Source: Psammoneis japonica (taxonomy: Eukaryota). Taken from it: 64,000 nucleotides of DNA. Of the stretch, positions 8,515 to 52,966 are shown piece by piece (position 1 is the stretch's first letter; every line of letters begins with the position of its first letter). The DNA lies in assembly GCA_008632985.1 (NCBI GenBank), contig QPGO01000182.1:1-64000 (forward strand), written 5' to 3'. The translations under genes were made by a program, and so were the position numbers. Below the pieces are notes generated by a model that ran no database searches, was not told the DNA's origin, and saw nothing but the letters and a program-made list of their open reading frames with translations.

Positions 8515-9321
8515 ATCCACACGCCTGATTTTTCATCCTCGCTTCCTGTTGCAGGCTTGCACTTTTTTGTTGAACACAACACGTTCTGATTCTCAATTCT
8601 CAATTTATGCCTTCTCTGTTGTCACCATGTGCCATCGTCCGGTTAACAACTGCCTCGTGGAGTACATCATTTTGTAGTCACAGTTAACCTTGTAGTTCAC
8701 ATTTTTTTGCAGTTTACACGTTGAAGAGCTAAAGCAGAGACGTGAGGGACAGCAGAATGAGGCGTCAATGGAGCTGCCGGAGCGGAGGGATAGAAGGAGG
8801 GGCATTTCGTAGATGGGGCAGGGGGGATTCATGCAAAAGGCAGAGAGGAACCAAACAGCATGGGTGGAAAGATGGTGCGGGATGCTGTGGCTCAAGGGTG
8901 CAGGAGTGGTGGGGGAGGGAGGACTGGTGTGTGCTGCCACAGCGGCAGCAACTGGCAAGTCAGTTCCAGGTGAAATCAGCAGAAGGGAGGAGGGACGCAG
9001 GAGAAGCAAGGGCATGAAGGAGGGCAAAGTGGAGAGCATCAGAGTCATGGAGGTCAGAGGAAGAGGGCCAGGGAGGCCTGGACTGGGAGCAAGTGGCAGA
9101 AAGCAAAGAAACAAAGAGGAAGCAGAAAAAGAAGAAGCCAAGAACACCCAGGTGACCAACAGCAAAAGGAACAAGGAAGATCCTGTTGCTGTTGTTGTTG
9201 AGGGAGTCAACAGCAAGAGAGCCATCAACTGAGAAACAGGATGGTGCAAGGAACTTTTGCCCCATGCCAATGTTGCACTGCAACTCCTTTGTGGATGCAG
9301 AAGCAGAGGGGGCAGGCAGGC

Positions 9322-9597
9322 TGACAGAAATTGAAGGCAAATGGCAAGAATTCAAACAACAACTCCTTGCTGCTGTCTAAACAGCAGATGAGTCTCCGCT
9401 CAGAGACCGTCACAGGAGCCGAAAGATGTGCAAGTCAGTGTGGTCGGGCCACTGTTGTCATTCTTGTGAGCCTTGTGGCTCGAAAGCAAACTGCATCACG
9501 CGCGAACACGCGGAACTAAAGCACACAAAACTGTGCGCGGCAAACCAAACAGTGCGCGACATTTCGCGCGCACCCAAATCCTGTTCAAATCCTGTCA
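9322..9597 (-). repeat. 3' LTR of Copia element
   Basis: Ungapped direct repeat of 16721-16996; TGACAG...CTGTCA ends. Confidence 0.95.
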
Positions 9598-12047
9598 CTC
9601 CCCAGTTTGCTTGAGGAGCCACAGAAACAGATTCGACTTCGGATGGAATGAAGTTCCAGAACATGAGGGGGCAGAGAAGGTCCCAGATTTGGGAGCAACC
9701 CCAATGCTTGCTGAGAATGTCAGCAGGGTTGCGGGAGCCTTCGATGAAGTGGAACTCAAGGCAACCAGAGGCAATTGCCTCAAGCACATGGCGGAACAAT
9801 GGCGCGGTGTGTCGCTTGTGTAACTTGGAGTGCGGGATGGTGGCACTGTCTACAACCGACTTGTTGTCACCGAACATGCAACTGACGTTACGGATCGGGA
9901 CACCAAGGTGGCGCAGGGTGATGCGCAGGTCAACAATCTGCTCAACACAAGTCCTTGCGGCAACAAATTCAGACCCGCAGGTTGCAGTCTCCACGGTGGC
10001 TTGCTTCTCAGAGAAACCAATCAGCCGGGAATTTGTTGAGGAAGTGGAGCATTCCCATGACAGAGCGTCCGGTGAGCATGCAATGGTGCAAGTTTGCATC
10101 GACGCAGTGGGTGGCAGTGACGAACTTGCCAAGGGGCGGTGGAGCATCCTTCGGGATCATCTCTTCTGCTTCGCCGCACACGGAATGCACCCACTCACAG
10201 GCCGGAGCAGGGAGATCCAAACAGCTGGGCTCTTCCATGCGAACGCGGAGAGCGCCGTGTCGCATCTTGGAGAGGTGCCCACAGACGCGTTTGGCACGAT
10301 CCAAGTGGCCTTGACGGGGTGCAGCTCGGAAGCTGGAGAGTGACATGACGGCCGTGGCAATGTCAATTTGACCAAGGGACACTGCCCATTGGAGTGAACC
10401 AACAAGAGACTGGAACTTGTGAATGCCATCGGGCTCCAGCAGTTCGGAAGTGTCCAGCTCGGGGTGGTCACCCTTCTCCAGAGGTGACAGGGCATTGGTG
10501 GCAGGTTTCTCCCCAAACAGTCGGGTGCAGCTGTCGACCATGCGCTCGATGCACTTGCGTGGAGACAGGCACAAGGTGCCGTCGGGATCCCGGGAAAAGT
10601 CGCAACCCAGATGGAACTCAATGGGTCCCGTGCCCTTGAGCTTGAACTTGCACTTTTCCATGAGAGTGTCGACGAAAGATTGAGGGTCCTTCACAGCAAT
10701 GGCAAGGTCATCCACATGAACGGCAATGCATTCACAGTGGTCGCCGTTCCTGCGCATCCAAATGTCGGGTTCGGCGCGGCAGGGGAAGAAGCCTTCAGCT
10801 GGCAGGCAGTTGGCGAAGCGCTCGTGCCAGCGGAGACCGGAGCTGCGCAGTCCACACAGGGCCTTGTGGATGACAAGGATGTGTCCTTCGAGTTTGCCAA
10901 ATTCGGGTCCGGCTGCAATGTAGAGCTTCTCCTTGGTGGTGGCTTCAAGGTGGGCATTGCCAATGTTGGTGGCCCATGTCTCCAACTCGTTGAGTTCGGC
11001 CAGGAAAATCATCAGCCGAAGGCCACGGAGGGAGACTGCTCTGGAGTGGACACCATCGATGGGCACGTCCGTGAGGTGCCCATCAGCTGCGAGTCGTGCC
11101 TTGTGGCGACCGTCGTGTTTCACGTCGCACACCAGGTGCGCTCGGATCTTCTTGTGTCCAGCAGGAGGAGTGGAAGACTCGAAGGGCCTGCAGTCATGGA
11201 AGACTTCGTATTCCCCGAGTTGGTCCATCTCAAGATTAGTTGCGTCTCCCCATTTGTGGTTGCCGTTGCGTTCGTCTGGTGACATGGCGTGTTTGCAGTT
11301 CCGGGGAACTTTGCATCCGCACTTGCAGCGAGGTGCAGTGCGGAAGGAGCGAAGCTTGGCTTGGTTGGCCATGCGAAATGGCTTCTTCTGGTGCCTCGCG
11401 ATGGTGCGGAACCGCTTCCAGCCATCAGCGTCGAGAAGTCCGTTCTCTCGTGCATGGATGGCGCAGGTGACGGGGTCATCCTTGGCGATGATGGCAAGAG
11501 GCTTGGACGTGATCTCCCCACTTTCCCATTCAAGCATGATGTTGTAGCTTGAGCCTTTCCAGGTTGGGTCATGAGGCTTCAGAGGTCCTTCGTGTGACAC
11601 GATGCGTCGAAATTTCCAAACAGCAGTGTCTTCGTCTTCTTGCTCAATGTGATTCATGATGTCGTTGCAGGCAAGGACTTCCTCGTATTCATCGTTGTTG
11701 ACAGAGCAGACAAACTCAGTGAGCTCAGGATTGCCACTCACTTTCCATTCGTGGTCTTCGACGGCCTTGACGATGCGAGCTCTGTGGCGTTGTCCGTCCT
11801 CTTGTGGCTGCATGAGGAAGGTGCGTCTGATGATGTCTTGCGGATCGAAAACTGGCATCTTGGGTGTCCTGATCTCCCCATCAGGAGAATCGACGGGGTT
11901 GTCGTCATGGCGAGATTTGATGATGGGTTCAGGTGGCTCCCCATCAGGAGGATCAAGACGCAGGTTTCAAACGGCAGGATCGGTGGCAGCGGATCGTACG
12001 TTGGACCAGCAGAGGATCTTCTGAGTCTCGTCAGAGAGAATCTTGAA

Positions 12048-12437
12048 GACGCGTTCCAGGTCTAGGTGGGACCTCGCACTGCTGAACTGTGACATCGACA
12101 GTTTTTTGAGTCTCGTCGTATGTCGCGCACGTAGATTTCTACGTGATTTTTTTGATGTTTTGTGTCATTTTACGGTGCACTTGTTGAGTGATCCGTCCAA
12201 CAACTTTTAACATTTTTTGTTACAGCGCGATTCTACAATGTCTTAAGAATCGCGTAGGGCAGGCGAAGTTGCAAAAACGTCGAGTGGCAAGAGGCACAAT
12301 TGTGCCACAAACTTGGCCGTTTGTTTGATGTTGAAGACAAATGTGTCCATTGATTAAATTCTCGTACTACGGAGCTCGCACGTAGAATTCTACGGGCCCA
12401 ATGTCACACGGAGTCCCACCTAGGGCTGGAACGCATC
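12048..12437. mobile_element. 390-bp MITE inserted into the Copia pol region
   Basis: TIRs GACGCGTTCCAGGTCTAGGTGGGAC / GTCCCACCTAGGGCTGGAACGCATC; 4-bp TSD TGAA (12044-12047, 12438-12441); removing it restores HQMTFKILSDETQ. Confidence 0.9.
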
Positions 12438-12764
12438 TGAAGGTCATCTGGTGGCCGACGTGCTCAGCAATGCCAACAAAGCGTCCACGCAACTCACGGG
12501 ATTCGGATGGCCAATCGGAGTCATCGAGGTGGAAGTGCACAGGTTCCCACCAGTGAAAGCGAAGCAATGGGCTGATGTCCGGGGTGGAGCCAGTGAGAGT
12601 CTCGAGGGGTGTGTGCCAGTGGAGACGTGGGGACGCTGCATGGTTGAGTGTGAAGCACACGCACATGAGCGCCAGCAGCCATGTGTGGGCAGGCGAACCG
12701 AAACGATCCATGACAGTGTTCGCCATGTGCTTCACAGTCTGGCATTGACGCTCGGCAAAGTTTT

Positions 12765-13108
12765 GGTGTTGCTGGTGAGGCTCACTTTGCCAGCTGGAGA
12801 TGAAGAGGGCTCGTAAAATCCCGATCACCTTGTTGCTGATCTCAACTTGAGCACGGTCGCTAATGAGTTTGGATGGGGCACCATGCTCACGGATCTGATC
12901 CTCGAGTGTGTTGACAAACTCCTTGTCCGTCTTGGTGGTGTTGCTGGTGAGGCTCACTTTGCCAGCTGGAGATGAAGAGGGCTCGTAGAATCCCGATCAC
13001 CTTGTTGCTGATCTCAACTTGAGCACGGTCGCTAATGAGTTTGGATGGGGCACCATGCTCATGGATCTGATCCTCGAGTGTGTTGACAAACTCCTTGTCC
13101 GTCTTGGT
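12765..13108. repeat. 172-bp tandem duplication within the Copia integrase
   Basis: 12765-12936 and 12937-13108 differ at only two positions by eye; TKTDKEFVNTLEDQI...SEPHQQH is encoded twice. Confidence 0.9.
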
Positions 13109-16100
13109 GCCACAGACGTCAGTGACGGTAGACTCGGTGCCAACAAACAGTTGGGCACTGGTGCAACCAGAGTCGACGGCCGGGGTGTCGGCACAAATGG
13201 TGTCAGTGGCAACAGGCTCGTTGCGGCGGTGCACATTAAGGGCGGGGTTGGGTGATTTGCAGGCCTTCCTAAGGTGTGCGCCGGCGGGCATGCGGACGCA
13301 CTGCGTGGTGCAGTCAAAAGTACGACGGACCGCATCGGCAGGCAGGAAGCCAAAGTGAGGCCGAAGAGACTCGAAAGGGGGGGTCCTTGGGCTGCACAGT
13401 GCGCTCCGGGGGCGGCACGTCGTCGTCCTTGGGGTCAATCGCGTGCAGATGACACTCGTAGAATGCGTCGTCGTTTGGAATGAGGTGATCATCGAGGGCG
13501 GACGTGTGATCGGCAGACAAGGAAGTGGACATGATGGTCTCGTTGACAACGACACGATGACGGCAGTTGCCGCATTCGTCAAATGGGTTGGCAGTGGGAT
13601 CGTCCTGCAGGTCAGAGATCGCGTCGCACCACTGGTCGTCGTCAGTGGCAGAGTGATCGAGGACGGAAGGATCCCATGTGTCATCACCGGTGAGGATGAC
13701 ATGGGGCAGGGTGTCCCATTTGGCATCAGTGCAAGGTCGCATGGCAACACAAGGCAGGCCGCCCTTGATGTCAATGGGGATGACATGGCCATCAGGAGTG
13801 GCAATGCGTTGCAAGCCGTTGGGCACCTTGACAGAGCGATCGTTGACATCCTGTTTGTGCCACTCGAGCTGGCCGCAGGAATGGATGGTCTTGCCCTTGC
13901 CCGTGCATGCGTGCTGATGGAGGATGGCGACGACGGGACCACGCTGGGTCTCAATGACGGCACCCACGGTGACAACAGGGATGTCCACCAATTGATGGTC
14001 GTCAATGCCCTGAACGTCGACTTTGCGAGAGGTGCATGCAATGACGCAAACGTTGTCATCAGCAATGCCGCCGTTGGCCCCACGATCGACTGGAGCACCA
14101 GTGCGTGTGGAGCGATGAGCAGAGGCAGAGCAAATGACATTGTGGTTGTTGACGCGACGGCAAGTGCGGCCGTTAAGTTCCACGTCATCGGCAGAAGCTG
14201 GCGGGGTAGAGGGAGCGGCGGATGGCCCCGGTCGACTGGCGTTGGGGGCTTGGTTAGGAGACAACAGATGTTGCAGATCACCGGGTGGCAGTGGCTTGCG
14301 CTTGGTGAGGTGCGCCAGGATGGGATCATCCGAAGTGGCATCCACACTTGGAGCGGAGTCACCAGAGTCAGCAGGAGTCGTGTTGGACAAGTTGACATCA
14401 CCGTCACTCCCAAGGCATTGGTCGTGAAGGTTGGCCGCAATGGACTCATGGCAGTTGCTGGCTTGCGGGTTGCGGGGAGGCGGACGAGAATGCTCAAGGA
14501 TGATCGCCTTGGAGGAATGGGGCAACGAATCCCAAATCCGTTGGTGGTCGGGAGGGAGACGTTTCCATTGGTCGCCGGTGAGGCTGGGACCACGGGCGCA
14601 GGCAGCATTGGCCTGAAGGACGTCAATGTCGCTGTCAATGTCGCAGAACACATCGTCGGACGGTTCCTCGGAGTGGACATCGTGTGCGCATGTGGCACGT
14701 CGGGGAGCTCGAGGTGTCATCTTGGGTTGAAACGTGCTGTCGCATTGAGCCGCTGCGGAGAGGAGCAAGCCACAGCATTGATCGCATGTGAGGCTCTTGC
14801 CACTCTGCGTGCGATGCTGATCAGCTTGGCTCTTGACAGCACGGAGTTCCTCGACAGGGTGTGCGGCATTCTCGAGCATGGCGTGCTTCTGTCCTTCAGA
14901 GAAGTGGTCACTGGCTGGGATGAGTGCCTTGCACTTGCGCAGCTGATCTTGCCAATGAAGGATGAACCCGTGGGTCGGACCTTTCCAAGTGCCATCACCA
15001 AGACGTGTGGTGGTGAGGTGCGTGAGCAAGGTGGAGGACTCAACAGATGCGTGGGTGGAGGCGAGCGCATGCTCAGACAAGGCACGGTGGACGGTCTGGG
15101 CATCAGAAGACCCCACATTTTTGCGAATGAGAGCCTTGCCCTTGTCGGTGAGAAGAATGCGTTCAAAGACGGCGAACATGTGCTTTTGCTGTTCAGCAAA
15201 GAGCAGTTTGTCTTCGGGGCTGGTCGGTTTGTAAGACGAGTCTAGAATGCACTCAACGTCTTGGGCACGGGCTTGTGCCACAAGTGAGGTGTGCCAAGTG
15301 TGCCACTGCTTGTCGGATTTGAGAGCCGTGAAAGCGGTGGGGTCACGCTTGATGCCTTGCTTGAAGTCTCACACCGGGTCGCGTGCCTTGGTCGGGTTGG
15401 TGACATGCGGAGGTGCGAGGGGTGAGCTGCCGACGGACACAGAAGACATGTGGTTGGGGCTGAGGCGGCAGGCAAGGAACTCGTCATGCGCGAACAATGA
15501 GGAGTCATTGGCAACGTCAAGACCTTCATGTGCTTTGACAATGTGCAGACCAATTAGAGCTGCTAACATGTTCTTATAACCGCGGGGCAAAGGGATCACA
15601 TTGGTGCCGTTGTTGCACTCAAGTGAGTCGATTTGGGACGGCATGAACGCGAACAGTTCTTGATGCGAGTCCATGCCGTCTTGGGTCAAAGCCAAATGAA
15701 GAGGGCTCCCAGCACCTTGGGCAAGCACGGTTCCAACAACGTGCTCGAAACCATCGGTTTGTTGCTGACGAGTGAGAACCATGGTAGACAAAAGTGGTGT
15801 CAGGACAAGCAATTCTTGTTGGGAAGCGAAGGTGGACTTGAAACTTGGGTGAGAATGGACTTGACTTGAAACAGACTTGACTTGAAACCTTGAACTGCCT
15901 TAAAATCAGAAGTCGCCGGGCTGTGCCATCCCGTTCGTTGTCAAGTGCTAAACTTCCCATCTGGTCCGTAGAGTTGTGCCGGCACGTCCGAACCCGCAGC
16001 TGGCGGTGCTTTGGGTTGCTTACGAGCGGAGCAGCGGGTTGTAAACCCCTGCAGGTGAGCTGACCAGAGGTGGACAAGACCCCCGAACCGTTCTCATTTT

Positions 16101-16720
16101 ATGTCGGTTGGATTTCCCGATCAGGCTGGCCAGTTGACGCAGGCGCCAGGCGCTGTGGACGAACGAACAAACGCGGGAAAGCACCCTCGCCCCAACGTAG
16201 GCTGCAATCACGGCCACTTGCTCTCACAGTCGTCCTCGTGGACCTGGCAGAACTGTGGAGCACCAGTGGTCCGGGGTGGATCAGGCACAATGGACTCGGT
16301 GTGCTTGCAGAGTGGCAGCAAAACTGCAGTCCGAAGAGTGGGTGCAAGTTCTTGGCCGTGAAGATGTGTGTGTGCACACATGTCTTCAGCAGACAAAGAT
16401 CCTTGAACATGTGGGGTTCTTGACCGTCAACCGATGAATGGGCACATCAAGGGATGAGGATCAAGGATGGACTTGGATGTGACCGTTGATGCATGTCTTC
16501 AGCAATCAAAGGCAGCACAATCAATCCAGACATCCAGCGGCAAGGAGACTTGACGGTGACGTTAAATTCCTGCCGATGCCTGGCATTGAATGCGCGCAGA
16601 CTTGCCGATGCATGTAGAGTGCACACGGAGGTCCACGCAGAATTGAGGTGGCGTCGTCGGTAAATCAACAACAACGATGGCGGTTGCTCAATGGGTTGAC
16701 AATGAGCAAGACTGTCAATC

Positions 16721-16996
16721 TGACAGAAATTGAAGGCAAATGGCAAGAATTCAAACAATGACTCCTCACTGCTGTCTGGATGGCAGATGAGTCTCCGCTC
16801 AGAGACCGTCACAGGAGCCAAAAGACGTGCAAGTCGGCACAATCGGGCTGCTGTTGTTGTTCTTGTGAGCCTTGTGGCTTGAAAGCAAACTGCATCGCAC
16901 GCGAACGCGCGGAACTAAAGCACACAAAACTGTGCGTGGCAAACTGAACAGCGTGCGACATTTCGCGCGCACCCAAATCCTGTTCAAATCCTGTCA
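16721..16996 (-). repeat. 5' LTR of Copia element
   Basis: Ungapped direct repeat of 9322-9597. Confidence 0.95.
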
Positions 16997-17923
16997 CAGG
17001 CAGGCCTGGAGGAGAGCAACAAGGGGCTTTGGGTGCAGCAACATCAGCGGTGATGCCATGTCACACTCCAACTCTTCATCCACCAACCATGGGCTGGATT
17101 TTTGGCACCCGCTGAGAGAGCAAAAGCTGGTGGTCGTGTGAAGGCAAGCCGTGTGTGCAATCAACAAAATGGTGTTGTGAATGTGCAAAAGTCTCGCCAC
17201 TTGTTGTCTCGCTCAATTGCCGTGCAGATGCAGCCAACTCACACTGTCAATCCTCCGACAAATCCAATGTCATGGTTTCATGTCGTCAAACCCACTTTGG
17301 CAATGCCAATGACAAGAGGAGCATTTTTCAAGACTTTGACAAAGCAGCTCCAATGTGAGCAGCCAAGTGTTTTTGAGTGGGAGAGGGCAGGGCGTGGGGC
17401 GGATTTTGGAGTGAAAACGCAGAGTGAAGCTGGTGTGCTGTTCAAAAGAAGCAGTCAAACAACGTTCACAAAGTTGCACATTGATGATGCTCTCCTGCAG
17501 AACAACAAATTCAGGCAATGGAAGTGCCCCCTTGCTGCTTGCACATTCGCACTGTAGTCTACTACCTACCGTACCATACACAGTGTGTATGAATAGAGAG
17601 GTCGCGCGAAGACGATGCATCAGAACACACCATCACCCGTCGCCAGTCGGTCACGCAGTCACCACCGAATCCACCAAGCACGTTGCACTGTCGTAGACTT
17701 CAGAGCACGAAAGCGAAGCCATGCCACTCCCTCTGCTGAAGTGCCCTCTGACACTGTTTTCTACTGTCTGTGATTGATCTGCCGACATTCAAGTGTACCA
17801 GCACTGGTGCCGTCCGACACGACTTCAATTCAATTCAATCCTATACATTACACAACTACTTTCAGCTGCTGCTGCCCAGTGGGGGCTTTGAATCGCCTGA
17901 ACTTTCCTTCAATCCACGAGCGA

Positions 17924-26268: not shown

Positions 26269-26354
26269 ATAAGAGTGTCAGATAATTCAACAGACTAGCC
26301 CACCGCTTCCCAATTCTTCAAAGGCGTAAGCTACTCCTTTTCCTAGAGTCACGT

Positions 26355-31955: not shown

Positions 31956-32219
31956 GATGCTCTTCTACAGTATGATGTTGGATGATGATGTCGACTGTTT
32001 AGCATTGAATTTTGGAATGATTCTGATTCTGAAATCTGTTTTTGGAATTTCGCAGTTCGCAAATTTATATAATAATTTCTGGGTTCTGAGGTTAATCATT
32101 ACGATATATTATTTTTTAATAGCTGGATGGTCAATGTCATTTTGAAATATTTTCTCTTTGGTTGTTTCATTCTGCTGCGTTTCCCGCTGGTCCTCAGCAT
32201 TTTGTTTTGCCAGCAGACT

Positions 32220-34680
32220 AGATGTCATGTGCTCTGACAATTGAATGAAGAGAGCAACAACAAGAAGCAGAGTTTGAGAGGAGAGCACAAAAAAAGAGAA
32301 CCACACCAGTGGTTCCAAGTTGATGTCACTCTGCCGGCTCCTGCCAGGCAGCCACAAAATGCAAGGCTCTCAACCAAGTGCCAGCACCCTTTCTTGGTTG
32401 GCACATCACATTCTTCAACAATGACAGCAACCCCAATGGGATCTAAGACATTTGTTGCAGCAAAAGCTGGTTGTCAACAAATGAGCAGAGGCACCAGCGC
32501 AGAGGAGCAGCAGGAGCAGCAGTGCAGCGCTTGCCGCCAGGCCTGTTCCAGCTCCAGGCGATGCTCACAGGTTGGATTCCCATCACTGGCCAATTTTTGA
32601 ATTTGGCACAATGAACTCTTTCAAAATCAGGTTTTTCCCAAATCAAAGGGTGCACACAAAACTCATGTTTTGTGTGCACCCACCTTTCGAAACGATCAAA
32701 TTTGAAGAAGTTCAACGTGCCAAACTGCAAAAAATCGGCCTCTCGCATGATGGATTTTTCATCACCTGGGGCTGGAAAATCCACCAGCACACTTCTAGAC
32801 AGGCTGCACTTTGACAAGAAAAGTTGCTTCACAAAGGCAACATTTGCCAATCAGGCTGTCACAAACAACACGCAAGTTCAAGAGAGTTTTTGCATGTGGC
32901 AAGGGGCAGACCCTCATGGCAGGGCCACTTTTGCAGCAGCACAAAATCCAACAACCTCTGGCACACACTCAACTTTGTGCATGCATGTTAAAACTGCAGT
33001 GCAACACCTGCATGACATGCCAGCGGGGGAGGGGGGTGCACATGGCTGCTGACAACCACTGCATTTGGGACTGTGCAAAAATCTGTGCGCACTTGTGTGG
33101 CATGACTTGGGATTATTTTGTGCACTGGCTGGAAGCGCAGTTGTCAGGCCATCCATTCAACAACCAAAGTTTTTTCATGCAGCTGCATTCTCTGATGCCC
33201 ACAGAAAAACCACAACTGTGCGTGCATGTTTTCCAAAAATCTTGAGCATCATGGAAAAATCATGCAGCAGCATCACACAAAATTGAAGTTGGTTGGCTCA
33301 TTTTGACATTGAAGATGAGCAGCATGCTCATTGCCCAACATGAATGAGCTCTGCAGCTCACACACAGATTTTTTCAGCGCCACATCATGCTGCACAAAGA
33401 ACACAAAACCCACCCAGAGCCAGGGTCCATCTTCATCATGGGGCCCCACAGTCTGCAGGAATTTTTGCATGTGGTGCTGAAACATGCAGCCTGCACATGC
33501 AAAACTGGTGCAGTTTCTGTGACAAAAAATCAAAAAAAGCCTGGTTTGCAAGGCAGCTCTGGTGCAAAACCTGTGCAATTGGTCCCCATGCATTCACGTT
33601 GAACTCCACGCATTTCTGGGGGTTGCAGATCCCTCCACATTTGTGGGGTCCCACGATGAATCTCTCTTGTTCTTGAGACACACGTGGGACAGTCATGCAA
33701 TGCGCACACAGATGAGGAGGTTTGTGTGCAAACAAGCTTTTTTCAAATGAGACATCTTGCAGCAAGCACAGGGCAAAAAAGAGAAAGATGAAAACATCTG
33801 GGCTCTGCTCCTCTGGCACACACCTCATGCCAATTTTGGATGTGGAGCCACCACAAAAAGTGCGCAGCAAAACACAGCTTCCCCAGGAGGCTCTCTTCTT
33901 GGTGGGGTGGGCACATTCATTGGCACCTTGTCATGAAGAGCAGCAAGGGCATGCACACACACAATTCTTGTCCAATGCAATGACTGAATGAAATAACTTG
34001 CTTTTTGACCTTTGACAACAACAATGCAGTGGCAGCAGCACAAACAAAATGGGGCTTCAAGTTGACACCCCACACTGCTGCCACTTCTTGGGGAACAGCA
34101 AGCAACTTCCAGGAGTCTTGGAAATGATTGGGGCAGGCACAACAGATTTGTCAATTTGTGCTGTTGGGTGCACAAAAAACGCACTGGAATTTTGTGTGAA
34201 CGGAGGTTGCCACAAGCGCGCTGCCAGAGCCATGTTGCACATGGTTGTTTTGGCTGCAGCTGCAGCAAACCATGCATTTTTGCACTAGATTTCCTGATTT
34301 CTGCACAAATTTGCTTTGGTTTCTAAAAAACTTCTCATTTGATTTGAGCTCCCTTCCCAGCCAAGAACCCTCAGCACATTTTCTGTTCTGCAGCATGTGG
34401 GGGACGAGGAGAGACAAAAGCAACCAAAAAGTGGTGTGTGTGCAGCTGAGCACACACAACAAGCAGCAGCGGCAGGAGAGACCACTTTGTGAAAAAAAAA
34501 GTGTCATCAGTTTTTCTGTCACAGGCAGATCAAAGTTGACAGTGGACAAAGTGTGTGCAAAAGCAAGTCTCACACCTGGGCATGATTTACCATGCCAAAA
34601 AAAATCCATGACCGATTGGGGCACAGCATTCCGAATCATCATCGCGTCAGACACGGTGACGTTCTGATCGCTGACGCGTT
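32220..34680. repeat. Degenerate repeat remnant, depleted in TpA and CpG
   Basis: CA/TG-saturated block bounded by normal-composition DNA; family not identifiable. Confidence 0.6.
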
Positions 34681-36289: not shown

Positions 36290-38551
36290 GGTTTGAATAA
36301 AGTATTAAATGCAGTAACACAGTGCGACGTGATGCTTGATGACTGCCCTACATACGAGTACAAGCTACTCTAGAAACTCACGCTTTACATCGTTTAACGG
36401 TTCAGCATTCCCCTTCACGTAGATGTGTGTAATCAGAGCCAACATCCAAGACCAACTTGAACGTCACAATCAATAATGTTCTTGATGAGGTAGGCAGCAA
36501 CAGTTGCCCCGCCCAAGAACATGGGGAGACAGGAGAAGTCGAAGCACATTTGGTTCCAAACCAACAAGAACTTCTGAGCCATTCGAAAGCACATGGCAGG
36601 GAGTGAGATTTTGGACTCAATTGTCAATTCCAACCACCTCAAGGTGATGGGTCCTGCTTCTTTGTTTGTGCAAAGGTGAGCATGTTTGTTCTTCTCAAAG
36701 AACACACAATCCTCCAATCTGCACAATGTGGCATTGTCTGCATCTAACAGCGATCTCAACATGTGATTCATCAGGAGCAATCTGCCCCAGCTCACTGCAC
36801 AACTTGAGAATGAAAACATTGATGAGATGTTGCAGACGTGAAACACGTTTTGACCACAAACATGTTCCATTGCACATGTGAGTCCACACTGAAACAACAA
36901 AACTGACTGGCAAAATCTGTCACTCATGTCCAGGACTCAAAGCTCACATGAGTGCACCCATTTTCCTCCAATGACCATCCAGTGTTCATTGCAAATCACA
37001 ACAGCACTGTTGCAGAAAATGTCTTTGGTTTCAGAATGTGCTGCTGTGCTCTGGATTGAATGTCAAAGAGCTTGAGTGCTTGGGGGTGCAGTCTGACAAT
37101 GCACGGCATGGTCATCATGGTCCATGACCACTTCAATGCAAGACAAGTGCATCAATTCACCAATGTTCATGAAAATGCCATGGGCACACACTGGTTGGAA
37201 TGTGCAACAATGTGCCTTGGTCATGCACACATTTTTGCTGCTTTCTGCAGGTGCATTGAAGCTCCAGAGAAGGCTCTCATGGCAAGGTCCTGGCAGCAAA
37301 CCACAGCCAACAGCCAACTCAGATCCGCAAATGGAGAGTGACAAGGCAATTGCTGCATGCACCCACCACCACAGCAAGATGTCATTGCTGCTTCTGTCAT
37401 TGTTTGCAGAAGGAGGAGAGAGAGAGCCACCTCGCTGCTCCACCATCCAAACCATGCATCCTTTCACAAATCTTGCACAAATGGGCATTTTTTTGCCATT
37501 TACAACAAGTGGCAATTGGGCCTTTGAGCTCATTTCTCTCCAAGTTTCTCTCAAGCACTGTTCACTTTGGCCACTGTTGAGACAAGCCCTCATCAGCCTT
37601 GTGCTTTTCCACAACATCAAAAGTTGCTTCCTGGGAGAACTTTTTGACTGACCCTGAGAATGACAGTTGACTTCAGTTTGCAAAATTGAACTCACCAAAT
37701 GTGATCTTTGCAGCCAAGTGACAACAAACCAGGTTCCATCCATCATCCAGTCTCCAACAATTTTGTGTGAATGAGGTGCAAAGGACCAACAAAAGCAGAG
37801 TTTGATGTGCCGGAGGAGGAGGGTGCTCAAATGATCACAGTTTTCTTAATGATCTGCTTTCAATGATCATTTTCATAAAGATTTCATCATGAAGATCAAA
37901 GATGATGGCAATGATGACATGCCACCACCCCCATTGGACAGATGGGAGAGCTTGAATGACAAGAACAAATCACGCAAGGACAACATGGCCAGCAAACATT
38001 CAAAGGGGCTTTGTTGGCAGCAATGGAAAACTCCTTGGCAAATCAAGAGTGCATTGTGGTTGGTCACTCCAAGGAACACCCACCAAAGAGTGCAACAGAA
38101 CCCATGGAGCCATGTTCGGCCACTGTCTTGTCTTGGTGCTGCACTCACATTTGGCATTGTTCATTTGATCTGACCTTGCCACATTCCATTTTCTGTTTTG
38201 CAGGCACTGGGAATTCATTGGCCAGTTTCTCATCAAAGATTTGGGGGGATGTGAATGCTTCGATTTCAAGAACTTTCATGACTGTGTTCATTTGATGGAA
38301 AGTCAACACTGGAGGCAAAACATGTGCTAATTTACTTTGGAATGTTGGCTGTGGCAATGATGTGCCAATCAATGAGTGCAGTGAGTGGCATCACCTGTGG
38401 CCACTCTGGGTTCATGGATCAGTGGAAGATGATGTGAAACACCATTGCATCCATTCCCTTGTTCACACACAGTGTTTGCTGGTGCTTTGGGTTTTTGTTC
38501 ATGGATCATTCTACACCATCATGCACTGGGTGCAGTTCTGCACTCTGGCTC

Positions 38552-41500
38552 TGAAGATTGCCAATTCGTCAAGACAGTCATTGTGACTCACTGTTTTGAT
38601 GACTTGCATCATCAGGGCTGATGCGCTTCAAAACACCCAGAAGAGAAGAGGTCAAGAGCCTCCTCTCCTCACAATCTCAACTCAGCTGCTGTGACACTGG
38701 CACCTGGTGTTGCCCCATGTCCATTGTGCATTGTCAAACATTGCCTGTTGATCACAATCCAACAAGGACATTCCATTTGCTCTAACTTCAGCTGAGCAGG
38801 CAATTGCGTGAGTCATCAACTTTTGCAAGAGTGCTGGATAAAAACCATTCCATGATGGTTCAGAACAGTTGAGCGGAGAGCTGTTAGACTGCACTCCAGG
38901 CAAACTCTTTCAGTTCCTCAAGAACATTGATGACAAGGCCTGCTTGCTTGGATGGGATGATCCAGTCACAGGCACTCTGATGATGCTGGAGGACCCTGAT
39001 GATCCCAACATGGCACATTTGAACCTGCTCACCAATTGTGGTGAAATCACCTTGGAATGCATCAAAAGACATGAGGAGCCACACATCATGAGTCCATGCT
39101 GTGTGGCCCAAGACACTGCCATGCTCAGTCACTGTCTGATCAACTCAATTTCCAAAGCAGGCAAAAGGACAAGGTGCACATCCATGACCAGTCCTGCTGC
39201 AAGATCAGAGGAAAGATTTCTGCTTGTTTGCTCCTCAAGGTCATCATTCAAGAACCATTTCTTGATGCAAATGCAATCATGAGCACAGTCCGCACTGAAC
39301 TCTTGGAGCTTGACCAGTGCTTGCCTGCAATCGGTCATGACATCACAAAGTTCAATCAGCACATGGCTCTCCCACTTGTGGCATTGCGGTCTTGTGGTGA
39401 AACCACAGAACACCTCCTGACAAATCTGTTCAAGGGACACTTGGCTGCTTTCAACAAGAGCTTTGTCAAGTGCATTGGAAACAAGCAAGAAGAACATGAG
39501 GATGGCAAGAACATTGCACCAACTTGATGCCAGCAGACAACAAGCACAAGAACTTGGTTCAGAAGCAGAAGTGGAGTGCACCAAGCAAGGAGGAAGAGAA
39601 GACACTCACCTTGGAAGCCAAGGTGGAAGGTGTTGAGAAAAGAGCCAAGAAGAAGGAATCCACTGAAAACACCAGGAATGGTCCCAAGCATGGACAGAAA
39701 GGGAGAGGCAGTGGGTGACAGGGGCAACATGCCCAAGTGGATGAAGGACAACTTGTGCCCCACCAAGGATGTGATCTCCAAGCCAAAGCATTGGAATGGT
39801 GTGCATTGCCATTGCTGCCATGAAGATTTGGAGGGAAATGCCCTGGCAAGTGGTGCAAGCACACTCTGGAGAATGCAATTTTGATCCAGATCAAGCAAAC
39901 AAGAAGAGGACAGCTGAAAAGACAAGAGCAGCAATGGATGAGAAAAGAAGTTTGGCCTCAAGCACAATGGCAGGCACTGCCTCAAGCTTGCAAAGACACA
40001 CAAGGCAGTTGTTGACAAGGAGGGGTCATCAGGCAAAGATTCCAAATGACTCCCAGAGCACGGTCACCATTGCAACTGCTGTGATCAGCACATGCAAGAT
40101 GGAAATGCAAATGAGACCTTGTGATGTCATGCCATGCTTTCCTCAAAGTGACCGTCATTGTCCCAGCACTGATCATCACAGACCAATCAATGGCCTGCAC
40201 TCACTGCACTCTGCCAGCAGTCATCCTTGTCATCTGCTTGTTGCTCCATCACAACAACAACCCAGGGCACTTGCCAGCCACATTGTTGCCCAAGCAAAAG
40301 CAATGGCACAGGCTGCACTCTGGTTGTCGCTGTCTGACCGGCAAGCTGTGTGCAATTGGGGAATGAGTCGCATGCTCCATTGAAGCAAGCAATTGACACC
40401 AACACTGACTTGTCCAGAAGAGGGAGAATCCAAAGGCTCCACCACTCTGTGGATGAGCTCAAGAGCCCCAAGCAATCATCTCACCACACTGCAGCACTGG
40501 CTGTGGTTGTGCAGCAATGCAGGCTCAACAAGAGCATCTTGGAACACATGTTGGCCTTCAATGCCAATTGTGGACCAGCTGGGGTTGACAATCAGGCTGC
40601 AGGTTGCATGTCCAATTGCACGAAGACTTCATCAGTGAAGCAAGATTGCAATGGAGCCATCAAGGGATTTGGTGGATCAAGATCAACCTCAGTGAAGGTT
40701 GTGCCCTGAGACTGCTGTGGAGGTGGAACAATGATGAGGGCAGAACACACAAGTTCAAGATGCCAAATTCATTCTGCACACCAAGTGGGAAGGTCAGGCT
40801 GCTGAGCCATCAACATTGGGCTAAGACCTGAAGGGACAACAAATCCAGAGAAGGCACTGGCAGCAAGACCAAATCAAAGCAGGTCACCCTCCATTGGAGC
40901 CAAAAGAAACACCAACTCACTGTGCCACTGAGCAAAACCACCAATGTGGCAATGTCTCACTTGGCACCCGGGTGCCAGAAGCATGAAAAAACATTCTGTG
41001 CAGAAGCTGACATTGACCCAGCACACAAAGTTGAGGATCCTGTGCCAGCCAAAGAGGCCACCAGTGCAAGTGATGAATGAGGATCAAGACAAAGCTGTGG
41101 GTGGGTGCAACACTGATGCACTGCACAAATGGCAACCTGCAAGCCAAGATCTGTTGCAAGTCTCAGGGTTGGCTCCTGGGAAGGTGACACAGATCAATGA
41201 CAGCGGACCATCAACAACAGCAGATTTTGACTTAGACAGACCAACTGCTGTGGACAGCAAGCACAAGGGATGAGACACAGACACCACACCAAGTTTGACC
41301 TCAGAGGGAGCAGACTCCAACCACCAGAACCCCAAGACAATTGCCAAGGGTCCACCATGGCATCACCACTTCCAAAGCACCATCAACAATTTGGTCATGT
41401 GAGTTTCACAAAATGCAATGGATGGTGAGATTGGGCATGCCACCAGTTTGCTCCACGTGCCCACATGCCAAAAAAACATGATGCAACCAGGAACCGACAG

Positions 41501-44344
41501 AGAAACCCACATGCCCATGCCAAGTTGTCTCAGCAGACCAACTGGCATCACCAACACAGGGGTTGATTGCTCAAACAACCAGATGACTGCTGACAACCAA
41601 ATGGCACAAGTGCACTGTGGTGTGTGTCAATCAATGTTCCAGATTGGGGTGCATGCACCTGCAAAAGACAGCATTAGCAGAGACATCAGAGGGCAAACAC
41701 ACTTTCAAGCAATGCACCAAGAGTTGTGGCATCACAGTCAAAGCCTGTCATCATGCTGACAATGGCATGTTCAAGGCAAACAACTGTGTCTTTGCATGTG
41801 GAACACAGGGGCAATGGCTCACCTTTGCAGTGGTGGGACCCACCATGCCAACAGATTGGCTGAGCACTGAACATGCAAACTCCAAGAACTGGCAAGAAGC
41901 ATGTCAATGCTGCATGCTCAAAGCCATTGGAAGAAGGCAATCACAGCAAGCCTGTTGCCTCATGTGACATGAATAGCCAACAATGCGTGCAACAACACAC
42001 CCAGTTTTCAAAACAATTGCAAGTTGACCCCACTGCAGATGTTCTCCAAGACCCAAGTCTGCAAACACAGTGCACATTCTGGACAGCACATTGCAATCTA
42101 ACCTGCCACATCACAAAGGATGAAAAATTCAAGGGTTTGAGTCTACTCAGGCCAAAGCCCAATGCATGGAAAGAACATGGGCACTCGCATTGGACCAAGA
42201 AGCCACTGCTCCAGTCAGCCCACAGTTCCATGTCAAATTTGATCCATCCTTCAACATGGTGCAGCAGGATAAAACTTGATTTGCAATGGCAAACCAAAGC
42301 CAGTTTTGCAGCTGAGAGGGAGGCAACAAAGGCCAAAACCAGTGGAGCAGTCAAAACGGCGTCCACACCAGCTCCAATCAAGAAGAAGCATGAGGCAAAT
42401 TCAAAGGGAGCCAAGCAAGGCAAGAAACAATGAAAACATGTCCAATGGACTGACCTGCAAGATTTGGAGCCACAACAGAGTGGCAACACTCAGTGGCCGC
42501 TGGCCAAGTGGCATCAGGGTAAAATGCTCCACATGCACAACCTTGAGAGCATGGAACCACACCTGCAACTGAATCTCTGGAAGTGGCTCCAAGCAAGCGC
42601 AAGTCTGACAAACACAAAGTGGTGCCAATGCAGCCAAAGTGACTCTCATTCAGGGTGTAAGAGCCAGCTGGTCAGCAGACTGACAGAAGCCATGACATCT
42701 GAAATCAGCTCTGAAATGAGGAGCGACATCAAGGGTGAGACAATGTGTTTGGCAGCCATGTGTCCCCAAGACTCGCAAGTGCTCCAAGAAGATGAGAATC
42801 CCCTCCTTGCCTGCAAAGCATCAGCAGATCCTGATGCCATGCATGTGCATCAAGCTGTGAAGGAACTGGGTTGCATGCAGTTCCTGTGGGCCATGCAAAA
42901 AGAGGCAATGGATCAAACATGGAAAATGGTGACTTCTCCATTGTTCCACAATCACAAGTGAAAAGAGACAGCAAAAGGTGCAACCAACAGGCCGGAAGAG
43001 TGTGGAACAAGTGTCTGGTCAACAAGCTTGTCAACAAGCTTGGATTCAAGCAATGAAAAATTGACAAGTGTGTGTTTTACCATGGAAAAAACATTTGCTC
43101 TCCTGTGCACAGATGACTCACTCATTGTCGGTCCTGATGAGAATGAAACAAATCACATCATTGAGGAACTCAAAGAGGCAAAGCTTGACATTGCTGTGGA
43201 AGGGTGCACACAGGATTTTCTGGGTGTCAACATTGTGAGAAAAGATGATGGCACTGTTCATTTGACACAACCACACTTGATTGACAAGTTGCTCAAGAAC
43301 TTGTGGTTGGATTTGCTGAGTGCTGTGCCTGAGGATGTCCCTGCAACATCCTCCAAAATCTTTTCAAGGCAGTGTGACTCAGAACCATTTGATGGTTTCT
43401 TCAACTGCAGATCTGTGGTTGGCAAGCTGAGCCATTTGGAGAAATGCACTCACTGTGGTGTGCATCACCTGCCAATGTGCATGGTTCATGGCAGATCCAA
43501 AGGTTGAGCATGGCAAGGCCACAAGATGGCTTGGTTGGCAAGCATGTGTGGATGCAGACTTTGGTGGCAATTGGGATCTGCAAGAAGCAGGCCAAGATTG
43601 TGACACTGCAAGGTCAAGACATGGCCACATCATTGCTTGCACGGGGGGGGTTGTCCCATTTTGTGGAAATCCCAGTTGCAAACTGAGATTGCATTGAGCA
43701 GCATGGAGTCTGAATGCACACAGGCTTGTCATGTGCCTTGTGAGAAGCCATGCCCTTGAAGGAGATGCTGAAGGAACTCAAGCAGCATGGATTTCCCATC
43801 AAGACATCCAAGCCCAAGATGCATTGCAGAGTGTTTGAAGACAACAGCAGTGTGCTGGAGATGGTGCGTGCACACAAGCACAGACCATGAATGAAGCACT
43901 TGAATGTCAAGTTGCATCACTTTGGAGACTGCATCACATGGAAGGAGATTTCAACACACAACACAGACACCACCAAGGACCAACTGGTGGATCATCCAAC
44001 TGAACCCATTGCAGCTAAAATCTCAGAAGCCCTGCATCCTTTGGTGATGGATTGGTGAGTTTCCCAAGTGCAAGGAAACCCTCTGAGAATGCCTCACTCT
44101 GATTGGATGGTTTGACTTGCAAGACACATTGAGAGGGAGTGTGAAGATTGTCAAATTGTCAAGACAGTCATTGTGATGCACTGTTTCAATGATGCATGTC
44201 ATTGGGGCCAATGTCATTCAAAAGACCTGGAGGAGGAGAGGTTGAGAGCCTCCTCTCCTCACAACCTCAACTCAGTTGCTGCAACACCAGCACCCAGCAT
44301 CACCCCACATCAATTGTGCATCATCAAACACCATCTGTTGACCA
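38552..44344 (+). mobile_element. Degenerate Ty1/Copia LTR retrotransposon
   Basis: ~203-bp LTRs at 38552-38754 and 44142-44344; PPT GAGAGGGAG at 44131; gag remnant ~38870-39700; IN HADNGMF; RT LCTDDSL, DFLGVNI; RNase H CVDADFGGNWD, RSRHGHII, VFEDNS, KHLNVKLHHF; possible TSD GGCTC/TGCTC. Confidence 0.88.
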
Positions 44345-50300: not shown

Positions 50301-52966
50301 AAGGGACACCTGTTGGGAATGACTCTTGTTTCTGTCACATCTCACATGTGACAAATGTGTGCAGAATGCATGGGGCAAATGCACACAGACTTTTGTGCAT
50401 GGTTGCACCAGCAGGGCCATGGGTGGCTGCTGGGTTCACATTGGAGCACCAATTGCCACTCACCAGGGTGCCACATGGTGTGCATTGTTGCATCGTACAC
50501 CAAGGCTTCTCTGGCTCAATTGCAAAGACATGATGCCTGCAAGCACTGGAGCACAGCAGACACTTAAGAAGAGGTCAATGTTGAGCCAGCAAAAAAAATC
50601 CAAAAAATGAAGAACGTCAGCAAACAGAGTTGCATTGTCAAATGTGATTGCTTGAATGACACTCCAGTTGTTGCACATTGTTGAATTTGCAGCACGTGTT
50701 GTCTCCAACAACCTTGTCAACTGCCTTTCTTGCAACCACTCTTGATGTCATGGATCTTTTGTTGCTTTGTGTTTTTTTTTTGATTTTTTGCACAGGTGGC
50801 ATGTGCTGTCCCCCATTTTTAAAATGTCCAGGTCTCCATTGTTTGGCATGCTCCTGAAACAGTTTGGTGTGGTGCTCTTGCTCTTTGCTCTCTGCTTGTT
50901 GTTCATGCTTGCACTGCTCCACACACTCTGTGTGATTGTCTGCCTCCTGGTCAGTCATGATCCTGATGAGATCTTCTCAGAGCCAAACATCCATCTCCTC
51001 CCGGTGGCAACACTCAGCCTGAATGACCCACAATGGTGGTGTCATGGGAGCACTTGGTTGGCGCATGTGATGTGGTGGTGGCACAAGCATGATGCCCAGC
51101 TTTGCCAGCTTGTCATGGTTTTGCCTGTTGTGCCAAAAACAAGCTTCTTCCAAGCCTCCTGCCACACCTTCTTCTCAGCTTCCTTCTTGGCTTCTTCCTT
51201 TGGATCAAGCTTCTTCAAAGCTCTGTGTTTCTTTTGTTGCAATGTCTTGTCTTTGGGGGCACATGCATTGCAATGGTGCACTCTGATGGCTGTTGGAGTT
51301 TTGTGGAGATCAATCAATTGGAGTTCTCATCAGGTGCAATGCAAGTTTGAGTGATGTTCCACATGCAGAAAGCTCTCATGCAAGAAGCCAAGGCCTTTAA
51401 AAACAATGGCGTGCTGATGCACATGTGCATTTTGCACATCCAAGTTCACTTCATTCAGTGCTTTGTGCTCTTGCACAAATTCAAAACAGAGTTGATGTCA
51501 GGGTCACTGAAGCAGCAGGCCTGGTGCATGCTGATGTGTCACAAGCACATTTTGTGTGACAAGAATGTGTGAAACACCACATGATGTGACGTCATCACTC
51601 TCTAAAAAAGATTGTGCAACAAGCTGAACAAGTTTCTGTGTGCAACCATGATGAACACACAATGACTTTGGCAGCAACAACAAGCAAGTTTGTTCTCAAT
51701 GGCACATCAGAGTGTTGTCAAATGATGTTCTTTCCTTCATTGCAACACACAGCATTTTTGGATTAAAGCAGCTCAAAATGTCTTGCTTTTGGCTTGCGTG
51801 CATTCATGCAGGACTGGTGCAAAATCCCACATGCTGCCAGTCCAAGTTGCAACTTGACAGAAGCCCTGCTTCAATGAACTTGGGTTGAGGTGAAGTCATT
51901 TGATTGTTTTAAAAAGCAGCACAGTGAAATTTGGACAAGAGCACCACTTTCAATGCTTCTGATCATGAGACAGATGATGGACCATGTGTGGTGAGGCATG
52001 AGCACTCAAGGGCAAGTTTCATGACATTTTCTTTCATGGTGGTGCTCACAAAATTGATTGTTTTCAACACATTTGTTGTCTGGGTGAAGTTTTCTTGCCT
52101 GTTGTTTCAGAAAAAATGAGGGTCAGAAGAACAGCTGACACCTGCCTCCTTGAGCTCCAGTGACCACAAATTTGCCACAATTGCTGTGGAATCTGCACCC
52201 AAATGACTGGTCAGGAGTCACCAGGTCCACCAGAGAAGGACACCAACAGCTTGCAATTAAAACAAACCAATGAAATTTGAACCAACTGACAGCCAAAATG
52301 GCCACGGTTGTCAGTGACCATGATGGCCCGCTTTTTTCAACCTTGTGGAAAATTGAATGACATGATGAGGACCACAGCATTTTATGCAGTCTGTGTCATC
52401 AACAACAACAATGATGGAAATGCTTGTTGCAGGCTGCAGCACTGCTCAAGAAGCCAAAAATCTGTTGGCAACAATGCAATTGAGCCTCGCTTCAAAATCA
52501 CAATTTCATCCATGTCATTGAATGACACAAGCACTTCAGTTGTTCATGTTGATGAAAAGATGAAAAAGGTTCCAAAGTCAATGCTGTTGCATGAGCTGAG
52601 TTTAATTTCTTCTCATGTCTTCTGAACTTTTTTCATCAGCGTGTGTCTCATTTGTTCTGTTGAGAGCAACTTGCACTGAAGTGTTGCAACAAAATGTCAT
52701 TTGCAAATTGTGAAAGCATTCACACAAGAGAAGATTTGCTTTGTCTTTTCATGTGCACATTGTTGGGATCACAGATTGCTCATCAGAAAACTGAGCTCCC
52801 ACCTTGTGTCACCTTTTGGCAATCAACAACTCACCCCACCCTCAGGATGATTCTCAGCTGGACAATTTGACATGCTGGTGGCAGGGACTGTCAGAACGGC
52901 CATGGACAATGTGGTGTCAACCTTTGGGTTTTACAACAGGAAAGACCCAAGGTTGGAAAAGGAAAG

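Follow-up and report, generated by a model that had tools for sequence, protein, structure and literature searches.

Support for TpA-directed, GC-enriching hypermutation of repeats in the diatom Psammoneis japonica

A copia element in TA-depleted DNA

The first 64,000 nt of contig QPGO01000182.1 from the diatom Psammoneis japonica (GenBank assembly GCA_008632985.1, forward strand), hereafter the window, combine host genes with a Ty1/copia-type retrotransposon and long repeat domains (Table 1). The host genes are present as long uninterrupted open reading frames (ORFs) and encode a mitochondrial carrier, a 7tm_3 receptor, ion channels and an aldo/keto reductase. The carrier has at least 120 homologs; among those listed, the eight with an organism name are all diatom proteins, 43-60% identical (Seminavis, Nitzschia (2), Epithemia, Cylindrotheca, Fragilaria, Mayamaea and Craspedostauros), which agrees with a diatom source of the window. 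The sequence of the repeats supports TpA-directed, GC-enriching hypermutation in this diatom, superimposed on ordinary CpG decay. Hypermutation of this kind appears to have been described once before, in another algal lineage.

The retrotransposon lies on the minus strand and is, to judge from its sequence features, nearly full-length. It is delimited by two long terminal repeats (LTRs) with the ends TGACAG...CTGTCA, which were recovered as a single direct repeat pair by repeat search and MAFFT and then compared without gaps. CAGGC borders both LTRs, in agreement with the intact target-site duplication reported in an earlier note on this DNA, and the identity of the flanks extends beyond these five nucleotides to 9 nt (CAGGCAGGC). 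The degenerate polyprotein between the LTRs is colinear from 15782 to 9641 with intact metagenome relatives of approximately 1850-1950 amino acids (e.g. 1859 aa), to which it is 55-66% identical. A minus-strand ORF at 10008-11858 matches Pfam RVT_2 (E=2.2e-20). This family is also the sole Pfam match of the intact relative P0001 (residues 1338-1554 of 1859); the integrase-like motif upstream of RVT_2 was read by eye in the consensus and is not a scored match.

Both conserved tyrosines listed in Table 1 have been replaced. In the catalytic motif of the reverse transcriptase (RT), alignment column 417 is Tyr in 100% of 60 homologs and CAT in this copy. Throughout the RT ORF, Tyr is reduced to 0.61% compared with 3.81% in homologs, and Cys is raised to 3.83% compared with 0.95%. 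No TGG-type primer-binding site was recognisable beside 16720 on the minus strand, and it may have been lost to mutation. Megablast of the LTR against a phage collection returned no match, and a degenerate LTR pattern scan of metagenome contigs returned 0 matches. Between 9458 and 16914, there are many overlapping ORFs of at least 600 aa on both strands (e.g. 13314-15281 minus, 13443-15245 plus). These are not evidence of genes, as such spurious ORFs arise because TAA and TAG stops vanish.

Two lesions of the element are later than its insertion, namely a 172-bp tandem duplication and a nested insert of 392 bp that resembles a miniature inverted-repeat transposable element (MITE). Contigs from three of four sequencing runs (X1, X2, X4) of a public sample skip 12043-12438, a segment spanning the insert, and read depth suggests that the insert is itself a high-copy repeat. 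Its observed/expected (o/e) ratios are 0.58 for TA and 1.28 for CG, compared with TA o/e of 0.08-0.14 in the surrounding copia sequence. Hypermutation therefore either occurred between the two insertions, in a burst-like manner, or short elements escape it.

The depletion of TA is restricted to repeat domains. Within these, TpA is depleted 4- to 14-fold and the borders are sharp, with TA o/e of 0.02-0.15 compared with 0.56 in 32.6 kb of gene-like DNA. By the thresholds used in the Bigelowiella natans preprint discussed below, 26 of the 64 1-kb windows carry the signature. Total pyrimidine-purine (YR) content, obtained by arithmetic on the counts, is 24-25% in gene-like DNA, the copia element and the 36.5-54 kb domain alike. 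This constancy fits transitions only, by which CG and TA have been redistributed into TG and CA. GC content is 55.6% in the copia element and 47.2% in gene-like DNA.

The two losses can be ordered in time. Regions depleted in CG are always depleted in TA, but the converse fails: CG is kept despite the loss of TA in both the copia element and the 61.6-64 kb domain. TA loss is therefore the faster process. The copia element is nested in already hypermutated DNA, and the relative order is TA loss first and CG loss later. The TAs that survive in depleted domains differ in their flanks from those of gene-like DNA, with a 5' T in 42% compared with 22% and a 5' A in 10% compared with 27% (chi2 81.5, p=1e-17). 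This suggests a flanking-base preference of the TpA process; some of the surviving TAs may be newly arisen.

Table 1. Positions and composition of the features discussed (o/e, observed/expected ratio; Ts, transitions; Tv, transversions)
Feature	Position	Strand	Basis or remarks
Target-site duplication, left copy	9317..9321		CAGGC; same 5 nt borders both LTRs
3' LTR	9322..9597	-	276 nt; direct repeat of 16721-16996; TG..CA termini, 6-nt inverted repeat
Candidate polypurine tract	9598..9610	-	Minus strand ...AAACTGGGGAG; read from sequence directly upstream of 3' LTR
Degenerate copia polyprotein (gag, integrase-like, RT and RNase H regions)	9641..15782	-	tblastn of P0001 and P0008; few frame breaks
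RT catalytic motif HVDD	10707..10718	-	Translation; YVDD in relatives; Tyr codon TA -> CA
Conserved Tyr codon of ALYGL motif	10854..10856	-	TGT (Cys) here, so ALCGL; Tyr in 101/101 homologs
Nested MITE-like insert, 392 bp	12047..12438		26-nt terminal inverted repeats; inverted-repeat search and composition
Tandem duplication of 172 bp	12764..13107		In integrase-like region; copies 2 transitions apart
5' LTR	16721..16996	-	276 nt; direct repeat of 9322-9597
Target-site duplication, right copy	16997..17001		CAGGC; matches left copy
Older repeat-like DNA hosting the copia insertion	8801..9316, continuing 17002-17400		TA and CG exhausted
Copia element			TA o/e 0.15; CG 0.83; TG 1.40; CA 1.55
Copia flanks, 925 nt			TA o/e 0.02; CG 0.23; TG 1.58; CA 1.89
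Gene-like DNA, 32.6 kb			TA o/e 0.56; CG 0.95; TG 1.18; CA 1.18
Depleted domain 32.0-34.5 kb	32001..34500		TA o/e 0.11; CG 0.24; TG 1.69; CA 1.87
Depleted domain 36.5-54.0 kb, 17.5 kb	36501..54000		TA o/e 0.04 (48 TA); CG 0.15; TG 1.90; CA 1.86
Depleted domain 61.6-64.0 kb	61601-64000		TA o/e 0.10; CG 0.84; TG 1.41; CA 1.64
LTR-like pair in 36.5-54 kb domain	38552-38754, 44142-44344		42 Ts, 7 Tv, 15 CA/TG swaps
Repeat copy A, outside depleted domain	61294..61552		TA kept; aligned with copy B
Repeat copy B, inside depleted domain	63733..63999		TA lost; aligned with copy A; cut by window end

Differences between the LTRs and their ancestry

The two LTRs differ at 29 of 276 positions (10.5%), and the differences comprise 29 transitions, 0 transversions and 0 indels. 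The earlier note had counted approximately 29 differences of this kind in a manual alignment, and the four examples of paired CA/TG swaps that it quoted are all found in the LTRs. By class, there are eight adjacent CA/TG swaps (16 differences), ten sites at which CG in one copy faces TG or CA in its partner, one TA/TG site (9379) and two A/G differences. The latter (9380 and 9443) lie directly 3' of a converted site: in each case TAA of one LTR corresponds to TGG of its partner, and the A/G difference falls on the second A. Among the 72 YR sites shared by the pair, 8 are CA/TG, 5 CG/CA, 5 CG/TG and 1 TA/TG, with the remainder identical in both copies (CG/CG 12, TA/TA 1, CA/CA 22, TG/TG 18). 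Along the LTR, the swaps are concentrated within the first 140 nt and the intact CpGs within the last 110 nt.

This distribution departs strongly from chance. YR dinucleotides hold 27 of the 29 differences though they cover 144 of 276 positions (binomial p=2e-6), and the 11 pairs of adjacent differences were reached in 3 of 100,000 permutations (p=3e-5). As a control for the fraction of transitions, we used paralogous ion-channel genes of the window (7356-8375 against 21976-22989), which have kept TA and differ by 104 transitions and 87 transversions; at their transition fraction, 29 transitions in 29 differences has p=2e-8. Differences of TA type number approximately 17, against 0 transversions.

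The differences arose in place after insertion, since a single template served for both LTRs and the target duplication has stayed intact. They are virtually confined to YR dinucleotides, and naive dating from a divergence of 10.5% therefore overestimates the age of the element. The proposals of the earlier note that a young element had undergone targeted mutagenesis, and that LTR dating would make it too old, are both supported. The two A/G sites abutting a converted TA are the sole exceptions to the confinement.

The direction of change is read from proteins. Across 101 intact relatives, 747 codons are conserved, and this copy departs from the relatives at 113 of them. The 37 conserved Tyr codons now specify Cys in 20 cases (TGY), His in 10 (CAY), Phe in 3, Trp in 1 and Tyr in 3. 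Of all 113 differences, 42 revert by a single change of TG or CA to TA, 24 by a single change of TG or CA to CG, and 47 by neither. Strand choice at these codons (TA to TG 26, TA to CA 16) shows no significant sense-strand bias (p=0.16). Protein searches for closer copies of the family, at near and longer lengths, found none above 66% identity; silent sites are not polarisable for this reason.

The relatives themselves do not share the signature. In 77 related metagenome loci, TA o/e is 0.44-1.02 and CG o/e 0.15-1.30, so that TA depletion is not intrinsic to the clade. Their terminal repeat pairs each contain at most one CA/TG swap, leaving out locus L013, in which the match is 65% identical and no LTR pair; several of the 100%-identical terminal repeats (111-127 nt) may be assembly overlaps. 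The closest intact relative, L001, has an LTR pair (1-537/7493-8029) with 19 transitions and one transversion. On one strand, 17 of these transitions read as C/T and their contexts are mixed, a different signature that is strand-biased or reflects co-assembly of variants.

A pair of repeats elsewhere in the window gives the same direction. When repeat copies A and B are aligned, eight sites are TA in copy A and CA (4) or TG (4) in copy B, and the reverse occurs 0 times. The copies sit 2.4 kb apart, with the border of the depleted domain (approximately 61.6 kb) between them.

Data on the copia family were taken from contigs of the four runs (X1-X4). Run X1 gave 17,276 records on the element, with a summed depth of 48,000-284,000 compared with 389-656 in the flanks; the family is therefore very abundant. 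The read table lists 40 of 535 variant rows. Among the 40 listed, 14 have TG or CA here and CG in the family (57-100% of depth, at least 93% in 13 of 14), which shows CpG decay specific to this copy, and six have CA or TG here and TA in the family (39-97% of depth). A further six represent three CA/TG swap sites; in four the family has TG or CA and this copy CG, in one the family has TG and this copy TA, and nine are in other contexts.

Four swaps could be polarised, and all four are TA-derived. One is in the LTR, at 9546/9547, where 97% of family depth has T at 9546 and no change is listed at 9547, which gives TA in the family. The other three are coding and compare this copy with the family majority. 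Codon 10854-10856 is TGT (Cys) here, CAT (His) in approximately 63% of family depth and TAT in at least 11%, with Tyr in 101 of 101 relatives. For codon 12742-12744, 84% of family depth gives CAC against TGC in this copy, and 68 of 101 relatives have Tyr. Codon 9800-9802 is CCA (Pro) here, CTG in 94% and CTA in approximately 6% of family depth, with Leu in 99 of 99 relatives. A CG ancestor at these three codons would encode Arg, Arg and Pro. Family CG at essentially all swap sites, which the earlier note had associated with ordinary deamination, is thus not what the polarisable swaps indicate.

The single differences have another source. CpG ancestry was recovered for four of the ten: 9553 (family C, 99% of depth) and, from the end of a family contig compared with the window by eye, 9498, 9500 and 9508. 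Both LTRs have TG at 9492-9493, a position at which the same contig end, again by eye, has TA. The ten CG/TG and CG/CA differences reflect CpG decay, with approximately 29% of sites converted per LTR. The suggestion of the earlier note that ancestral TA or CG was resolved on opposite strands therefore stands, with swaps derived from TA where polarised and single differences from CG.

At the remaining swap sites of the LTRs, ancestry was judged statistically. A model in which CpG is the only source and converts at a single rate is rejected by the numbers of CG/CG (12), single (10) and swap (8) sites (chi2 7.5, p=0.006). At the conversion probability of 0.29 given by intact and single sites, 1.04 CpG-derived swaps are expected, and the Poisson probability of eight or more is 1e-5. 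By our own arithmetic, a TA class of approximately 16 ancestral sites, with approximately 0.93 converted per LTR, fits the 7-8 swaps, one TA/TG and one TA/TA site. Most of the LTR swaps are hence likely to be TA-derived, and we infer a figure of about seven of the eight.

Mechanism, alternatives and related systems

The explanation that we regard as probable is a recent insertion of the copia element on the minus strand, followed by two dinucleotide-specific transition processes acting in place on repeat or silenced DNA. That both the TpA and the CpG process shaped this copy is very likely. The LTRs would have been identical at insertion. In a fast step close to saturation, TpA would become TpG or CpA, the A of one strand or the other undergoing an A:T to G:C transition; in a slower step, CpG would become TpG or CpA at approximately 0.29 of sites per LTR. 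The product TG or CA would no longer be a target, hence two stable end states. TA and CG are palindromic and the strand would be picked independently at each site, so that the two LTRs would disagree approximately half of the time. This would leave reciprocal CA/TG swaps, arising from ancestral TA and rarely from CG. CG has also been lost from the older DNA flanking the copia element and from the 36.5-54 kb domain, in keeping with the slower CpG decay. The TpA step may be enzymatic deamination of DNA adenine to hypoxanthine, as proposed for Bigelowiella natans, and may act in bursts. Runs tests for strand coordination of TG and CA gave z of -1.2 to +1.9 over six regions (1.93 for the element, 0.2 for 38-53 kb), by which strand-coordinated (processive) editing is rejected.

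In methylated transposons, deamination of 5-methylcytosine usually turns CpG into TpG or CpA, and this deamination alone might be proposed to have produced all swaps from CpG, with the TA depletion unrelated. It would account for the ten of 29 LTR differences that set CG against TG or CA, four of them polarised to CG, and for the many related elements with CG o/e down to 0.15; diatom transposons are indeed CpG-methylated (PMC2806351, PMC6604790). However, the single-rate model predicts approximately one swap in place of eight and is rejected, the four polarised swaps trace to TA, and a CG ancestor would place Arg or Pro at conserved Tyr and Leu positions. Thirty of 37 conserved Tyr codons have become Cys or His, and the copia element has lost most of its TA (o/e 0.15) and kept most of its CG (0.83). 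We consider this proposal improbable. An intrinsic bias of the copia lineage against TA, with ordinary neutral divergence of the LTRs, is close to negligible in probability: TA falls mildly short of expectation throughout (0.56 in gene-like DNA), but the relatives have TA o/e of 0.44-1.02 and a normal Tyr content. Nor could a catalytic HVDD and 30 changes of Tyr to Cys or His be selected, and 10% neutral divergence with 0 transversions has a p below 1e-5.

Other proposals retain the targeting of TpA and change its chemistry, its timing or its reality. Thymine might be oxidised to 5-hydroxymethyluracil by a TET/JBP-type enzyme, or otherwise modified, so that it mispairs with G. The outcome in sequence is the same, since TA to CA on one strand is TA to TG on the other, and 5-hydroxymethyluracil prefers TpA in dinoflagellates. 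The sole published proposal is nevertheless adenine deamination by an ADAT2-like enzyme (bioRxiv 10.64898/2026.01.13.699255, in the available text), and we hold thymine modification to be unlikely. Editing before integration, whether ADAR-like A-to-I editing of RNA or APOBEC-like editing of cDNA, would agree with the 5' U favoured by ADARs (same preprint), and the resolved states common to the family could be copies of edited templates. It is opposed by the origin of both LTRs from one template with an intact target-site duplication, which makes the 29 differences later than insertion, by the lack of strand-coordinated runs of TG and CA, and by non-retroelement DNA with the same signature, including the TBCD-like fragment described below. 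ADAR is not known outside animals, and such editing is very improbable indeed. Modified bases can give systematic transition-like errors in some long-read assemblies, and the assembly may have been made from the very run that supports it, which leaves room for a sequencing, base-calling or polishing artefact. This is highly improbable: contigs of run X1 carry 59% of the 31-mers sampled from a 10-kb stretch, and there are 0 differences between a 4273-nt contig and the window at the junction where the LTR at 16721-16996 meets its right flank. The changes also behave as inherited mutations, with Tyr turned into Cys or His at conserved codons, sharp borders and an untouched nested insert, and in B. 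natans, mutation-accumulation lines sequenced with Illumina acquired this signature de novo (bioRxiv 10.64898/2026.01.13.699255, in the available text).

Several points weigh against the two-process explanation or soften its estimates. The family sample may be the source from which the window itself was assembled, and provides no independent support for base calls. Among the LTR swaps, one of eight was polarised directly and seven of eight statistically, on the assumption of a uniform CpG rate; heterogeneous methylation could explain some swaps, given the clustering of swaps and CpGs within the LTR. In addition, one resolved state dominates in the family at the swap codons (CTG 94%, CAT 63%, CAC 84%), with TA in the minority. 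Part of the conversions may thus have been passed on by templates that were already mutated, or weighting by depth may mislead; inheritance leaves the differences between the LTRs unaffected but weakens the rate estimates. The nested 392-bp insert is untouched, so the process was not continuous or short sequences are spared.

The closest known system is that of the chlorarachniophyte B. natans (bioRxiv 10.64898/2026.01.13.699255, Mettrop et al.), of which part of the text was available. Its mutation-accumulation lines gained 231 mutations in two integrated viral regions, of which 230 were A-to-G or T-to-C changes located without exception at TpA; the hypermutation was approximately 1000-fold above background and occurred in some lines only. 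The preprint also reports 324 TpA-depleted coding sequences enriched for reverse-transcriptase and DDE domains, and proposes an ADAT2-like deaminase as the enzyme. As there, TpA is converted to TpG or CpA on both strands in foreign or repeat regions only, with depletion of TA and enrichment of CA and TG; activity appears intermittent in B. natans and would be burst-like here. The changes in the window are likewise A:T to G:C at TpA with genes spared, the exceptions being the second A of two TAA. The systems differ in host, which here is a diatom (a stramenopile), and in target, with LTR retrotransposons and long repeat domains here and integrated viral DNA there. They also differ in extent, with TA o/e of 0.04-0.15 here compared with 0.45 in the B. 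natans region of nucleocytoplasmic large DNA virus (NCLDV) origin. The evidence in B. natans is de novo mutation, and that presented here is comparative only. CpG decay coincides with the signature in the window, whereas the available text of the preprint is silent on it, with 0 occurrences of CpG, LTR, diatom or stramenopile.

Repeat-induced point mutation (RIP) shares with our observations a transition-only, dinucleotide-specific mutation of repeats in place that wrecks transposon genes. In ascomycetes, RIP acts mainly on CpA, where its C-to-T changes generate TpA and reduce GC. It is the functional analogue of the present process but works in the reverse direction: the repeats here are 4- to 14-fold depleted in TpA and their GC content is higher. 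RIP has a length threshold, of which the escape of the 392-bp nested element is reminiscent. Methylated transposons also undergo CpG decay, of which the TCG-directed, RIP-like hypermutation in basidiomycetes is an instance (PMC3318451, in its available part). Such decay explains ten of the 29 LTR differences and accounts for the CG o/e of 0.15-0.24 in older domains. It cannot remove TA or turn Tyr into Cys or His, and predicts approximately one of the eight swaps. APOBEC3 editing of vertebrate LTR retrotransposons (PMC4866542, available part) and ADAR hyper-editing resemble the pattern as deaminase-driven, transition-only damage to retroelements. In contrast to the window, where the LTRs differ and the strand is independent at each site, those processes precede integration, are strand-coordinated and leave the LTRs alike. 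No report of TpA hypermutation in diatoms was found in the literature covered (subscription journals and preprint supplements lay outside its scope), including the available parts of PMC2806351, bioRxiv 10.1101/2025.10.24.684338 and PMC6604790. The last of these, a mutation-accumulation study of Phaeodactylum, found the usual GC-to-AT bias.

The signature is significant for several reasons. TpA-directed hypermutation from A:T to G:C opposes the near-universal GC-to-AT bias and, in the literature covered, was first described in 2026 in one chlorarachniophyte. A near-saturation footprint on diatom LTR retrotransposons would extend it to major, ecologically dominant algae and to a second branch of the SAR group (stramenopiles, alveolates and Rhizaria). 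LTR pairs serve as built-in polarised recorders of mutation, from which relative rates can be read (TpA much faster than CpG), as can relative timing (copia insertion, then hypermutation, then an untouched nested insert). Ages of such elements come out too high by LTR dating, here by the entire 10.5%, and Pfam annotation of depleted repeats fails, with 99 of 101 ORFs unmatched; if the explanation is true, both LTR dating and repeat annotation are distorted in these algae. The finding directs the search to a DNA adenine deaminase, or a modifier of thymine, coupled to transposon silencing.

Whether an enzymatic defence lies behind the signature is, in our estimate, an even call. More tentatively, and with chances slightly short of even, diatoms may have a DNA editing defence directed to repeats or heterochromatin that converts TpA to TpG or CpA. 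This would be a GC-enriching counterpart of RIP that acts in bursts with a flanking preference (ATA hit most, TTA and TAA surviving) and belongs to an old SAR-wide system. If so, the defence and CpG deamination would together drive all palindromic YR dinucleotides in silenced DNA to TG and CA, and its presence in a stramenopile and a rhizarian would make it old and SAR-wide.

Other repeats and genes of the window

The LTR-like pair of the 36.5-54 kb domain has lost its TA entirely and retains one CG, at a CG/TG site. When 101 ORFs of the depleted DNA at 32-54 kb and 61.8-63.2 kb were scanned against Pfam, 99 had no match and two had one above or near the curated cutoff; the matches are one TBCD-like fragment, with the others noise. 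This fragment, related to tubulin-folding cofactor D, spans approximately 175 aa at 45100-45605 (Pfam ARM_TBCD_2nd, E=4e-11). The whole TBCD gene was not found, as tblastn of TBCD relatives maps only approximately 175 residues. Since the fragment lies inside a TA- and CG-free domain, sequence derived from a host gene has been hypermutated too. The stretch 39001-43000 of this most depleted domain is strongly skewed toward A over T (AT skew +0.18 to +0.30) and contains no recognisable Pfam domain.

Duplicated sequences in the gene-like DNA have kept their TA. Paralogous ion-transport genes at 6923-8511 and 21636-23185 bracket the copia element and are 81% identical over 1 kb. Their spectrum of differences, given above as the control, is ordinary, and duplicated genes as such are therefore not targeted. 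A tandem repeat of approximately 130 bp at 26013-26269 is 84% identical between copies, which differ by eight transitions and eight transversions with TA intact.

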